Source of the DNA: Escherichia coli
GTDB taxonomy: Bacteria; Pseudomonadota; Gammaproteobacteria; Enterobacterales; Enterobacteriaceae
Strand: one strand, 5' to 3'
Length of the DNA: 64,000 nucleotides
Assembly (NCBI RefSeq): GCF_003018255.1
Contig: NZ_CP027440.1
Shown here: positions 36,335 to 56,534 of the stretch, one piece after another
Position numbering within the stretch: the stretch's first letter is position 1
How the letters are laid out: each line of letters starts with the position of its first letter
Program-made: the position numbers and the translations under genes
Notes under the pieces: generated by a model
Seen by the model: the letters and a program-made list of their open reading frames with translations, nothing else
The model's database searches: none
What the model was told of the DNA's origin: nothing

Positions 36335-36360
36335 AAAAAAAACGCCGGATTAACCGGCGT
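36335..36360 (-). terminator. Rho-independent terminator of fadD
   Basis: On the minus strand: gacgccgg-ttaat-ccggcg followed by TTTTTTTT. Confidence 0.75.
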
Positions 36361-36379
36361 CTGACGACTGACTTAACGC

Positions 36380-38065
36380 TCAGGCTTTATTGTCCACTTT
36401 GCCGCGCGCTTCGTCACGTAATTCTCGTCGCAAAATTTTTCCGACGTTAGATTTCGGTAACTCATCACGAAACTCCACCAGCTTCGGTACTTTGTAGCCC
36501 GTGAGCTGACGGCGGCAAAAAGTCACCAGTGACTCTTCGGTAAGTGATGGATCTTTTTTCACAACGAAGATTTTCACCGCTTCGCCACTGGAGCCAGAAG
36601 GTACGCCAACAGCCGCGACTTCCTGTACGCCAGGATGCTGCATGACGACATCTTCAATCTCGTTGGGATAGACGTTAAAACCGGAAACCAGAATCATGTC
36701 TTTTTTACGATCGACAATACGCAGGAATCCTTCTTCATCCATCACCGCGATGTCGCCAGTGTGTAACCAGCCATTTTTGATGATTTCATCGGTAGCATCC
36801 GGACGCTGCCAGTAACCCAGCATCACCTGCGGTCCTTTGACACAAAGCTCACCTGGTTGACCCGGTGGTACTTCGTTGTCGTCGTCATCCACCAGTTTGG
36901 CTTCCGTCGACGGCACCGGCAAACCGATGCTACCACTATGATAATCAATATCATACGGGTTAACGCTGACCAGCGGCGCACACTCGGTCAGGCCATAACC
37001 TTCCAGCAGATACTGCCCTGTCAGTTTCACCCAACGTTCTGCCACCACTTGCTGAACAGGCATCCCACCGCCTGCGGAAAGGTGCAGACTGGAGAAATCC
37101 AGCTGCTGGAACTCTTTATTGTTCAGCAACGCATTGAATAAGGTGTTAACGCCAGTGATAGCGGTAAACGGATATTTCGCTAACTCTTTTACCAACCCTG
37201 GAATATCGCGCGGGTTAGTGATAAGCAGGTTCTGCCCACCCAGTTCGATAAACAGCAGGCAGTTAATGGTCAGTGCAAAAATGTGATAAAGCGGCAGCGC
37301 CGTCACCACCAGCTCTTTGCCCGGATGCAACAGCGGACCATAGGTCGCGTTAACCTGTTCCAGGTTCGCCAGCATATTGCGGTGAGTCAGCATCGCGCCT
37401 TTCGCCACACCAGTGGTACCGCCGGTGTATTGCAGGAAAGCTAAATCTTCCGGCACCAGTTCGGGTTTGACGTACTGCATCCGGTAGCCGTTGTGCAGGG
37501 CGCTACGAAATGAAATGGCATCTGGCAGATGGTATTTCGGCACCAGACGCTTGATGTATTTAACAACAAAATTGACTACCGTGCCTTTTGCCGTAGATAG
37601 CTGATCGCCCATACGGGTCAGAATTACGTGCTGAACGGCGGTTTTATCAACCACTTTTTCCAGAGTGTGGGCAAAGTTAGACACGATAACAATCGCCGAT
37701 GCGCCGCTATCGTTAAGCTGATGCTCAAGTTCACGCGGGGTATACAACGGGTTAACGTTTACGACAATCATCCCGGCACGCAAAATGCCAAACAGCGCCA
37801 CCGGATATTGCAATAAATTAGGCATCATCAACGCAACGCGATCGCCTTTCTTCAGTCCCAACCCTTGTTGCAAATAAGCGGCAAACGCGCGACTGCGTTC
37901 TTCCAGTTTGCGGAAGGTCATCACCTCCCCCATATTCACAAACGCGGGTTGATCGGCGTAGCGCGCGACCGACTGCTCAAACATATCTACCAGAGATTGA
38001 TAACGGTCAGGGTTGATCTCCGTCGGAACGTCCGCGGGATAACGGTTAAGCCAAACCTTCTTCAA
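36380..38065 (-). CDS. fadD: Long-chain fatty acid-CoA ligase FadD
   Basis: TTG start at [14 protein letters not shown] gives 561 aa; AMP-binding motifs. Confidence 0.93.
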
Positions 38066-53117: not shown

Positions 53118-53576
53118 ATGACAATCACGGACCTGGTACTGATTCTTTTCATCGCCGCACTCCTGGCCTTCGCGATCTACGATCAGTTCATCATGCCCCG
53201 CCGTAACGGCCCCACTCTGCTGGCAATTCCTTTGCTCCGGCGTGGTCGCATCGATAGCGTTATCTTCGTCGGATTGATTGTCATTCTTATCTATAACAAC
53301 GTCACGAATCATGGCGCGCTAATAACAACATGGTTATTAAGTGCACTGGCTCTGATGGGTTTTTATATATTCTGGATCCGCGTTCCGAAGATCATCTTTA
53401 AACAAAAAGGTTTTTTCTTCGCCAATGTCTGGATTGAATATAGCCGAATCAAAGCGATGAACTTGTCGGAAGATGGCGTGTTGGTGATGCAATTAGAACA
53501 GCGTCGGCTGTTAATCCGCGTTCGAAATATCGACGATCTGGAAAAAATTTATAAGCTTCTCGTTTCAACTCAATAA
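53118..53576 (+). CDS. yobD: UPF0266 membrane protein YobD
   Basis: 152-aa ORF. Confidence 0.88.
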
Positions 53577-53764
53577 GTTATCAATTTAGCCAAAGCTATG
53601 TTTAGTGTATTTTTAATAATCAGACATAGCTTAGGCTATATTACCCCTTCCCTTATTTGTTATTTATTTTAACGTTTCATTGATATATAAATCTAAATGA
53701 AAATCGTTATCAATAAAGCAATGAAATAATATATTCCAACAGTTGTTTTATATTCTCAAAATAT

Positions 53765-53900
53765 GTTAAGGTTGCGCCCTCATTTGGGGAGTAGCCGATT
53801 TCCAGATTCCGGAAATGTACGTGTCAACATACTCGTTGCAAAACGTGGCACGTACGGACTGAACACTTTCAGTCAGGCGAGACCATATGCACATCAATCG
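53765..53900 (+). ncRNA. yybP-ykoY-type manganese riboswitch in the mntP leader
   Basis: Contains UUUGGGGAGUAG and GGCGAGACCA-like segments typical of the yybP-ykoY motif within the 5' leader of mntP. Confidence 0.55.
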
Positions 53901-54004
53901 CTATGCCTGCATGAACGCGAAAACCATCGCGGTTTGTCGTTCATGTATGCATGTTTGCTGGGGGCGATGATGTGTTTTATGGATACCCCGGTCAGGACGT
54001 TGTC

Positions 54005-54571
54005 ATGAATATCACTGCTACTATTCTTCTTGCGTTTGGTATGTCGATGGATGCATTTGCTGCATCAATCGGTAAAGGTGCCACCCTCCATAAACCGAAA
54101 TTTTCTGAAGCGTTGCGAACCGGCCTTATTTTTGGTGCTGTCGAAACCCTGACGCCGCTGATCGGCTGGGGAATGGGCATGTTAGCCAGCCGGTTTGTCC
54201 TTGAATGGAACCACTGGATTGCGTTTGTGCTGCTGATATTCCTCGGCGGGCGAATGATTATTGAGGGTTTTCGTGGCGCAGATGATGAAGATGAAGAGCC
54301 GCGCCGTCGACACGGTTTCTGGCTACTGGTAACCACCGCGATTGCCACCAGCCTGGATGCCATGGCTGTGGGTGTTGGTCTTGCTTTCCTTCAGGTCAAC
54401 ATTATCGCGACCGCATTGGCCATTGGTTGTGCAACCTTGATTATGTCGACATTAGGGATGATGGTTGGTCGCTTTATCGGCTCAATTATTGGGAAAAAAG
54501 CGGAAATTCTCGGCGGGCTGGTGCTGATCGGCATCGGCGTCCAGATCCTCTGGACGCACTTCCACGGTTAA
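54005..54571 (+). CDS. mntP: Manganese efflux pump MntP
   Basis: Start at [19 protein letters not shown] gives 188 aa. Confidence 0.9.
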
Positions 54572-55377: not shown

Positions 55378-55470
55378 GACAACTCCGGCAGGATACTAAA
55401 GGCCGCAAGTGTAACGCGAATCACGCGGCGGGCAAATATCCGAACGACTGGAGCGAAGATAAAGCAAAGT

Positions 55471-55497
55471 AAAAAGCCTCGCATTCGACGAGGCTTT
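55471..55497 (-). terminator. Rho-independent terminator of cspC
   Basis: On the minus strand: agcctcg-tcgaatg-cgaggct followed by TTTTT. Confidence 0.75.
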
Positions 55498-55542
55498 ATA
55501 GCGAGATTGAAGCGTATTCACACTTCAGATCAGTGGATTCGA

Positions 55543-55752
55543 TCAGATAGCTGTTACGTTAACAGCTGCCGGACCTTTCTGACCGTCCTGAATTTCGAAC
55601 TCAACGTTCTGACCTTCAGCCAGAGTTTTGAAACCATTACCCTGGATAGCAGAGAAGTGTACGAACACGTCTTTGCTGCCATCAGCCGGAGTAATGAAGC
55701 CAAAACCTTTAGACTCGTTGAACCACTTAACCTGACCTTTAATCTTTGCCAT
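55543..55752 (-). CDS. cspC: Cold-shock-domain protein CspC
   Basis: 69-aa ORF with RNP motifs KGFGFI and VFVHF. Confidence 0.95.
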
Positions 55753-55764
55753 TTGAAAAATTCC

Positions 55765-55908
55765 TTAGATTGTTTTCTTCGCCCGCAGGCATAACATAGA
55801 TAAAACTGACACATTACTGCATGAGGCACCAATATAAGGCTCGGCAGAGAAGCGGTATTCAACGTCAACGTGTTTACTCAGGACTTCTTTACTGAAAATG
55901 CCACACAT
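55765..55908 (-). CDS. yobF: Small protein YobF (47 aa)
   Basis: Minus-strand ATG..TAA encoding [47 protein letters not shown], 12 nt upstream of cspC. Confidence 0.7.
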
Positions 55909-56534
55909 AAACAGAACTGTACCTCGTTTAACCCGAAATCTGTTATCACATACAACGTTAATTATGGCAAGCCATTTTTAAACATGTCTCGATCAGACGC
56001 ACAAATCTCGATACGTCTTCCACTTTTTTTGCACACTTATGCAACGGAATACGCGCCGATATATCATTGTGCTTAACCTTGCCAGTTCAGGCAGATACTT
56101 AAACTGACGTATTTTCTAACATAGTTCAATAAGTTCAGTTGTTCCAGGCCAGTGGGAGAAGTTATTACATAGTGCGTGCAATATCACATTTTCTGCTATG
56201 CAATGAATAAAAAGTTATATCACTTTTTCTCATAAAACAGTCAGTTAACGGCTATCGATCACCCCAAAGAGAAGTCAATCGCCAAAGGTATTGTAAATTT
56301 AAAATAAGAAAAATTGATGAATGCGCAAAAAAATCAAGAGAGAAACGTTTCGCTAATAAATAATACCACGCTTAATCACAAATCCGATGTAAACATCCTA
56401 ATAAATTAATGGGCTAAATATCTTTTTCTGATATCCCGTTACGCAAATAAATAATATGATAATTATTTGAAGTCAGACCAGAGTTTTAATTTGAAGCAGT
56501 TGCACCATGACAGTGCGTATAATCAGGATGAATT

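Follow-up and report, generated by a model that had tools for sequence, protein, structure and literature searches.

The closest described counterpart of the element analysed here is the mntP (yebN) riboswitch of Escherichia coli K-12, a member of the yybP-ykoY family (Rfam RF00080) at the same locus of the same species; its leader has been characterised experimentally as a riboswitch (PMC12153347, PMC11647493 and PMC9603457, all citing Dambach et al. 2015), and Mn2+ binding with a change of expression in response has been reported for it in the same three studies. Mn2+ turns on mntP translation by disfavouring a structure that sequesters the ribosome binding site (RBS; PMC10197570, PMC9603457), and a response to Mn is seen in translational fusions that are transcribed from a constitutive promoter (PMC9603457, PMC11647493). 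Rho terminates transcription within the mntP UTR and over the initial 147 bp of the open reading frame, which Mn relieves partly; no Mn response is left when +1 to +19 (P1.1 5' strand and L1) are deleted, and MntP is overproduced to a toxic degree when the riboswitch is lost (all PMC11647493). Without Mn, strand invasion disrupts P1.1 and L1 once the transcript is ~205 nt long, with a single helix in the platform, and co-transcriptional probing gave no clear Mn-dependent change around the mntP RBS (PMC12153347).

The second yybP-ykoY member of E. coli, the alx (PRE) riboswitch, does not lie in the 64,000-nucleotide stretch of DNA that was analysed (the window, to which all coordinates refer unless stated otherwise). 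It lacks P2 and forms a three-way junction, whereas the mntP element of the window has P2 and a four-way junction; alx also shows pH dependence, contains an intrinsic terminator site within P4 and has several helices in its platform, in contrast to the single platform hairpin found here (PMC12153347 for alx). The published model of the Mn-free state of alx has P1.1/L1 disrupted and paired with the RBS (PMC12153347). The members from Firmicutes and Xanthomonas (L. lactis yoaB, B. subtilis yybP/ykoY, X. oryzae) have the four-way-junction aptamer in common with the window element and are like it in L1-L3 docking and in the use of P1.1 as switch helix (PMC12153347; 10.1101/553354), but they use an intrinsic terminator/antiterminator platform, whereas the mntP element acts through translation initiation and Rho.

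Locus, transcript start and identity with K-12

The gene order in the window is manY-manZ-yobD-mntP-rlmA-cspC, as in a segment of the E. coli chromosome. A 601-nt query spanning the yobD-mntP gap had a match in 5422 of 5426 complete E. coli genomes, the matched region carrying annotations of yobD and mntP, and the layout around the gap in the RefSeq record of K-12 MG1655 was as in the window. The gap was confirmed as 428 bp (yobD end at 53576, mntP ATG at 54005). The initial annotation had placed a structured leader with a yybP-ykoY signature at 53765-54004, a range that is approximately the entire mntP 5' UTR; the aptamer proper is narrower (53781-53889). A protein search with MntP returned relatives that were all at least 86% identical, and Pfam PF02659 was found on homologues of the window protein. 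The following features were assigned to the transcription unit:

53762..53767 (+): putative -10 hexamer TATGTT of the mntP promoter, read from the sequence and placed by the reported 229-nt UTR
53776..54004 (+): mntP 5' UTR, equal to the full riboswitch (aptamer and expression platform), from the reported 229-nt UTR (PMC11647493)
53994..53997 (+): mntP Shine-Dalgarno AGGA, 7 nt 5' of the AUG, likewise read from the sequence
54005..54571 (+): mntP CDS, manganese efflux pump, 188 aa (ORF list; RefSeq of identical or near-identical E. coli records)

The start site at 53776 was placed from the UTR length of 229 nt given in PMC11647493; the nucleotide numbering of PMC12153347 (A11, A48) fits a first nucleotide at 53780, which was kept as the alternative. 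Assignment of TATGTT (53762-67) as the -10 hexamer is made with low confidence, and a consensus promoter scan did not flag it. The Shine-Dalgarno is kept in orthologues as (A/U)GGA or GAGG. Directly 5' of P1.1, at or before the reported transcription start, the hexamer GCGCCC (53774-53779) is almost invariant in orthologues, its G1 and C2 without exception; a promoter discriminator would be one explanation, an RNA 5' end that pairs with GGAC(G)C at the Shine-Dalgarno another.

The leader is 98% identical to that of K-12 MG1655, from which it differs at 9 of 471 aligned positions. The sole difference in the aptamer is C53864 in the P4 loop (U in K-12); three substitutions lie in the variable platform apex (53929, 53933, 53938) and one at 53999, between Shine-Dalgarno and AUG, and the window MntP carries an I7V change. 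The base of the platform hairpin, the C-run 5' of the Shine-Dalgarno, the Shine-Dalgarno itself and the start codon are identical, and none of the differences falls at a conserved or covarying position. From this near-identity, with the two aptamers one loop base apart, the window leader would be expected to respond to Mn2+ as the K-12 leader does, with an induction of about 7- to 9-fold.

Aptamer architecture and covariation

The leader was assigned, with a probability of about 0.95, to the yybP-ykoY manganese riboswitch family as its mntP member, acting in cis within the ~229-nt 5' UTR of a manganese exporter gene, because it has an Rfam match, a four-helix architecture supported by covariation, and near-identity to the characterised K-12 leader. 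The riboswitch at this locus is already known from genetic and structural work and from co-transcriptional probing, and the assignment is nothing new biologically. The aptamer lies on the plus strand in the 5' leader directly before mntP, a manganese homeostasis gene, and was mapped by hand as follows:

53781..53889 (+): yybP-ykoY aptamer, four-way junction (RF00080 match and covariation)
53781-87 with 53883-89 (+): P1.1, switch helix
53786..53794 (+): L1 motif GGGGAGUAG, opposite GAGA 53879-82
53794-96 with 53876-78 (+): P1.2
53799-803 with 53811-15 (+): P2
53817-25 with 53847-55 (+): P3.1
53826..53832 (+): L3 loop AACAUAC, part of the metal-binding core
53834-37 with 53842-45 (+): P3.2
53857-63 with 53868-74 (+): P4
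53879..53884 (+): GAGACC, in which GAGA is the L1 3' side and CC opens the P1.1 3' strand

Both motifs on which the signature had been based were present, TTTGGGGAGTAG at 53783-53794 and the downstream GAGACCA segment at 53879-53885, and the signature itself held up given the 98% identity to K-12 and the covarying four-helix structure. The pattern GGGGAGTAG-N70-100-GAGACC occurred once in the 64-kb window and in 0 of 100 shuffles, and the region 53765-54020 folded more stably than its shuffled versions (z = -4.1; 0 of 200 shuffles as stable). Adenosine A11 of the published numbering, the A-minor adenosine of L1, corresponds to A53790, and A48 in L3, in the metal-binding core, to A53827 (PMC12153347 for both functions).

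For comparison across species, GTDB representative genomes were scanned with MntP, which gave 80 Enterobacteriaceae loci; the aptamer alignment held 73 distinct sequences, and 79 distinct leaders were used for the platform and the complete leader. Standard pairs made up 96.3% of the alignment cells of the aptamer helices, with a compensatory change on both sides in 19 of 34 pairs (73 orthologues); none of 500 shuffles matched the observed pairing values, and pairing fell to 27%-44% in a control in which the 3' partners were slid by 1-3 columns. Every aptamer helix had at least one covarying pair, and in P4 all seven pairs covaried. The canonical four-way junction of P1.1, P1.2, P2, P3.1, P3.2 and P4 is thus kept in canonical order. 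Single-stranded motifs were conserved as sequence: L1 (GGGGAGUAG) was invariant in 72 of 73 orthologues, the L3 motif CAACAUAC at 53825-32 was exact in 74 of 77 leaders, and in the orthologue aptamers AACAUAC was nearly invariant and GAGACC invariant or nearly so.

Expression platform and proposed switching

Downstream of the aptamer, one hairpin (S1) and two short complementary runs make up the expression platform:

53883..53982 (+): platform hairpin S1 (covariation in 79 leaders)
53883-53901 (+): S1 5' arm, which includes the P1.1 3' strand CCAUA
~53902-53952 (+): hypervariable apex of S1
53957..53963 (+): platform-loop G-run GCUGGGG, complementary to the C-run; GGGG invariant
53964-53982 (+): S1 3' arm, ending in the anti-P1.1 sequence UAUGG (53978-82)
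53986..53992 (+): C-run CCCCGGU, directly 5' of the Shine-Dalgarno; CCC invariant

Across the 79 leaders, 97-98% of alignment cells were compatible with S1, and 9 of 11 upper-stem pairs had compensatory changes. The G-run belongs to a conserved loop sequence, UUUrCUGGGG (53953-63), and in orthologues a linker of 3-4 nt separates the S1 3' arm from the C-run, which is followed by the Shine-Dalgarno. P1.1 did not form in the ligand-free thermodynamic ensembles of 79 of 79 leaders, its 3' strand being paired with the platform instead (mean p = 0.97). Capture of the P1.1 3' strand by S1 when ligand is absent is a conserved anti-P1.1 switch, consistent with the published single platform helix and strand invasion at ~205 nt (PMC12153347). 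Enforcing the aptamer in the window leader cost ~10 kcal/mol in the folding model, a difference that would have to be made up by ligand and tertiary contacts.

The S1 apex shows a 12-nt indel within Escherichia (GAAAACCATCGC-like 12 nt present in K-12 and the window strain and absent from other Escherichia species), and unrelated insertions in Citrobacter and Klebsiella; Enterobacter has none (77-nt platforms). No convincing intrinsic terminator was found 3' of the window aptamer. The sole terminator-like hairpin (53916-31) is weak and lies in this non-conserved apex; it was rejected as an intrinsic terminator, the apex being deleted or replaced in close relatives.

From these elements the following course of switching is proposed. 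Mn2+ would bind between L1 (GGGGAGUAG) and L3 (AACAUAC), so that the two coaxial legs dock and lock the P1.1 switch helix (53781-87 with 53883-89). With P1.1 held, the region 5' of the start codon would be open and mntP translated, and coupled translation would partly shield the transcript from Rho. Without Mn2+, the S1 3' arm (53964-82, UAUGG end) would invade P1.1 and capture its 3' strand; the C-run (53986-92), a neighbour of the Shine-Dalgarno, could then be bound by the freed P1.1 5' strand and the L1 G-run. The region 5' of the start codon would thus be structured, translation initiation poor, and the untranslated transcript would be terminated by Rho within the leader and early ORF.

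In its last step, in which the freed P1.1 5' strand and L1 would close over the ribosome landing site, the exact way of RBS masking is drawn from folding and from analogy: we infer for mntP an L1:C-run pairing that parallels the published Mn-free model of alx (PMC12153347). The C-run and the L1 flank were compatible in 97% of alignment cells in the 79 leaders; they showed no covariation, and none is possible for this helix because L1 is invariant. The helix was present in the minimum free energy (MFE) structure folded from 53781 and in 22 of 79 ensembles, and the predicted partner of the C-run shifted with the RNA 5' end that was assumed. Another candidate, the P2 5' strand (UUUCC) with the Shine-Dalgarno, which appeared in the MFE structure folded from 53776, was rejected (75% of alignment cells pair, no convincing covariation in 79 leaders).

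The platform-loop G-run (53957-63) would appear, from the alignment, to be an equal or better partner of the C-run (53986-92) than the L1 flank: 99.3% of alignment cells pair, with two compensatory pairs, both in a single clade of four sequences (Cedecea, Buttiauxella-like) in which ACUGGGG/CCCCGGU is changed to GUUGGGG/CCCCAAC and the platform G-run is identical to the L1 flank. It is a tentative and rather doubtful suggestion that the G-run (UUUrCUGGGG) mimics the L1 flank (UUGGGG) and competes for the C-run as a decoy. If so, the full 19-bp S1 would, without Mn, keep the loop G-run away, and the C-run would be left to the freed L1 flank, whose pairing would close the leader. While the full S1 stands, the G-run would be out of reach of the C-run, on the steric reasoning that a 3-nt linker is too short. 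With Mn the base of S1 would be unzipped, and the G-run would hold the C-run in a pseudoknot that protects L1/P1.1 from invasion and leaves the Shine-Dalgarno open. The idea draws on counting and steric reasoning; if true, the decoy logic would provide a link from the status of P1.1 to RBS access, which the probing of 2025 could not see (PMC12153347). In any case, the comparative data on S1 and its covariation, on the conserved G-run and C-run and on the variable apex form a modest resource on RBS gating.

A riboswitch that acts mainly on transcription elongation, with Rho loading sites exposed in the ligand-free leader and hidden by Mn2+, and with RBS occlusion of little importance, is an unlikely alternative overall. 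Bicyclomycin raises mntP mRNA ~20-fold, and in a purified in vitro system Rho terminates in the UTR and Mn restores run-off transcription without ribosomes (PMC11647493); the probing result around the RBS cited above (PMC12153347) also fits it. Against this, the Mn response of translational fusions under a constitutive promoter (PMC9603457, PMC11647493) was recorded, the authors ascribe the relief of termination to restored transcription-translation coupling, and the placement of a conserved C-run and Shine-Dalgarno right after the switch hairpin fits control of initiation. Rho control and RBS gating are not mutually exclusive.

Reading frames, model score and neighbouring sites

Two of the reading frames that overlap the leader exist as had been listed, the 81-aa frame 53763..54008 and the 206-aa frame 53951..54571, which extends mntP in frame. 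The initial annotation had taken such frames for probable spurious translations of the structured RNA, and this is supported by the start site, by ATG codons that are not conserved and by the lack of a kept frame. The ATG of the 81-aa ORF (53763-65) lies inside the putative -10 hexamer TATGTT, 13 nt 5' of the reported start (229-nt UTR, PMC11647493); orthologues do not keep the ATG of the in-frame mntP extension. The 27-aa ORF at 53887-53970 starts in the P1.1 3' strand with an ATG that was found in 11 of 79 leaders, the triplet in the remaining leaders being AGA, AGG, TGG or TGA. Leader length ranged from 172 to 231 nt with phases of 33/23/23 (79 leaders), and no frame is conserved relative to mntP because the lengths are spread over all three phases. 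Validated small proteins are among the entries of the K-12 RefSeq record, which shows no CDS between yobD and mntP and gives MntP 188 aa. The upstream ORFs were accordingly rejected as real genes, with neither a conserved start codon nor a conserved frame.

Control of the leader by a translated upstream ORF (attenuation or translational coupling), with RNA structure secondary, is for these reasons very improbable. Candidates exist, namely the 27-aa ORF and a 21-codon frame ending in an ATGA overlap with the mntP start (stop TGA at 54006-08 overlapping the mntP ATG), and many leaders are stop-poor, with an open stretch of at least 60 codons in 40 of 79. However, the ATG at 53887 and the leader phases vary among orthologues as described, the ATGA overlap is a by-product of an N-terminus conserved as Met-Asn and disappears in orthologues whose second codon is CAT or CAC, conservation tracks base-pairing with compensatory changes and not codon positions, and K-12 has no CDS annotated in the gap.

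Public gene calls often give MntP 199-241 aa instead of 188 (P0001, P0002, P0006 and others). These over-long calls take GTG or ATG codons of the riboswitch platform (window 53972-54004) as starts, a mis-annotation that recurs because the leader is stop-poor.

The covariance-model search proposed with the initial annotation was carried out with RF00080 of Rfam 15 ("Manganese", yybP-ykoY). In a 3-kb search it returned a match at 53778-53874 (+) with 41.9 bits and E = 3e-9, so that the outcome for the expected plus-strand hit was borderline, significant by E-value but with a bit score short of the 45 set as gathering score; when the whole window was scanned at the gathering threshold, no RF00080 match was reported. 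The alignment ends at 53874 and leaves out the P1 3' strand and GAGACC. The validated K-12 leader itself scored only 41.6 bits, which is why the shortfall is read as a matter of model sensitivity, and 19 orthologous leaders from other Enterobacteriaceae scored 35.5 to 55.6, straddling the threshold. The sub-threshold score is a sensitivity limit of RF00080 for this clade and not evidence against membership. A validated riboswitch thus lies below the curated threshold in E. coli and many other Enterobacteriaceae, and standard pipelines leave it unannotated; RefSeq E. coli records carry no riboswitch feature at the yobD-mntP gap.

That the motifs match by chance, or are what is left of a decayed and no longer functional riboswitch, as the score of 41.9 bits below 45 and the missing RefSeq annotation could be taken to mean, is hardly conceivable in view of E = 3e-9, the score of the validated K-12 leader (41.6), the orthologue scores on both sides of the threshold, the compensatory substitutions that keep all helices in 73 species and the near-invariance of L1, L3 and GAGACC, and it is refuted by this covariation together with the identity to the characterised K-12 element.

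Rfam matches to mir-282 and PK-repZ were far below threshold and were discarded; that to mir-282, on both strands, reflects the palindrome 53583-53642. Just after the yobD stop, this inverted repeat holds two ACATAGC-N4-GCTATRT palindromes (53584-53601 and 53624-53641), ~135-190 bp 5' of the mntP start site. Upstream of K-12 mntH (L083:72-89) this motif is a perfect palindrome, and it occurs before mntP in at least 29 other Enterobacteriaceae loci. The two palindromes in the window are probably MntR activator sites, by what we take to be the MntR consensus. The perfect MntR-type palindrome at K-12 mntH (region L083:38-127) is contained in a small annotated ORF, ypeD (b4819), whose sequence overlaps the start of mntH. 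AT-rich inverted repeats (53664-53729) are found between the MntR-like sites and the promoter, and within them AATGAAAATCGTTATCAATAA (~53697-717) resembles what we assume to be the Fur box consensus. Fur regulation of mntP is mentioned in PMC11647493.

Two further RNA families were matched above their gathering scores elsewhere in the window. The cspA thermoregulator match at 55468-55928 (-) scored 139.7 bits against a gathering score of 78 and, judged by the K-12 annotation of the yobF-cspC region, is the paralogue cspC with its coding sequence included. The small RNA sroD was found at 36336-36421 (-) with 115 bits.
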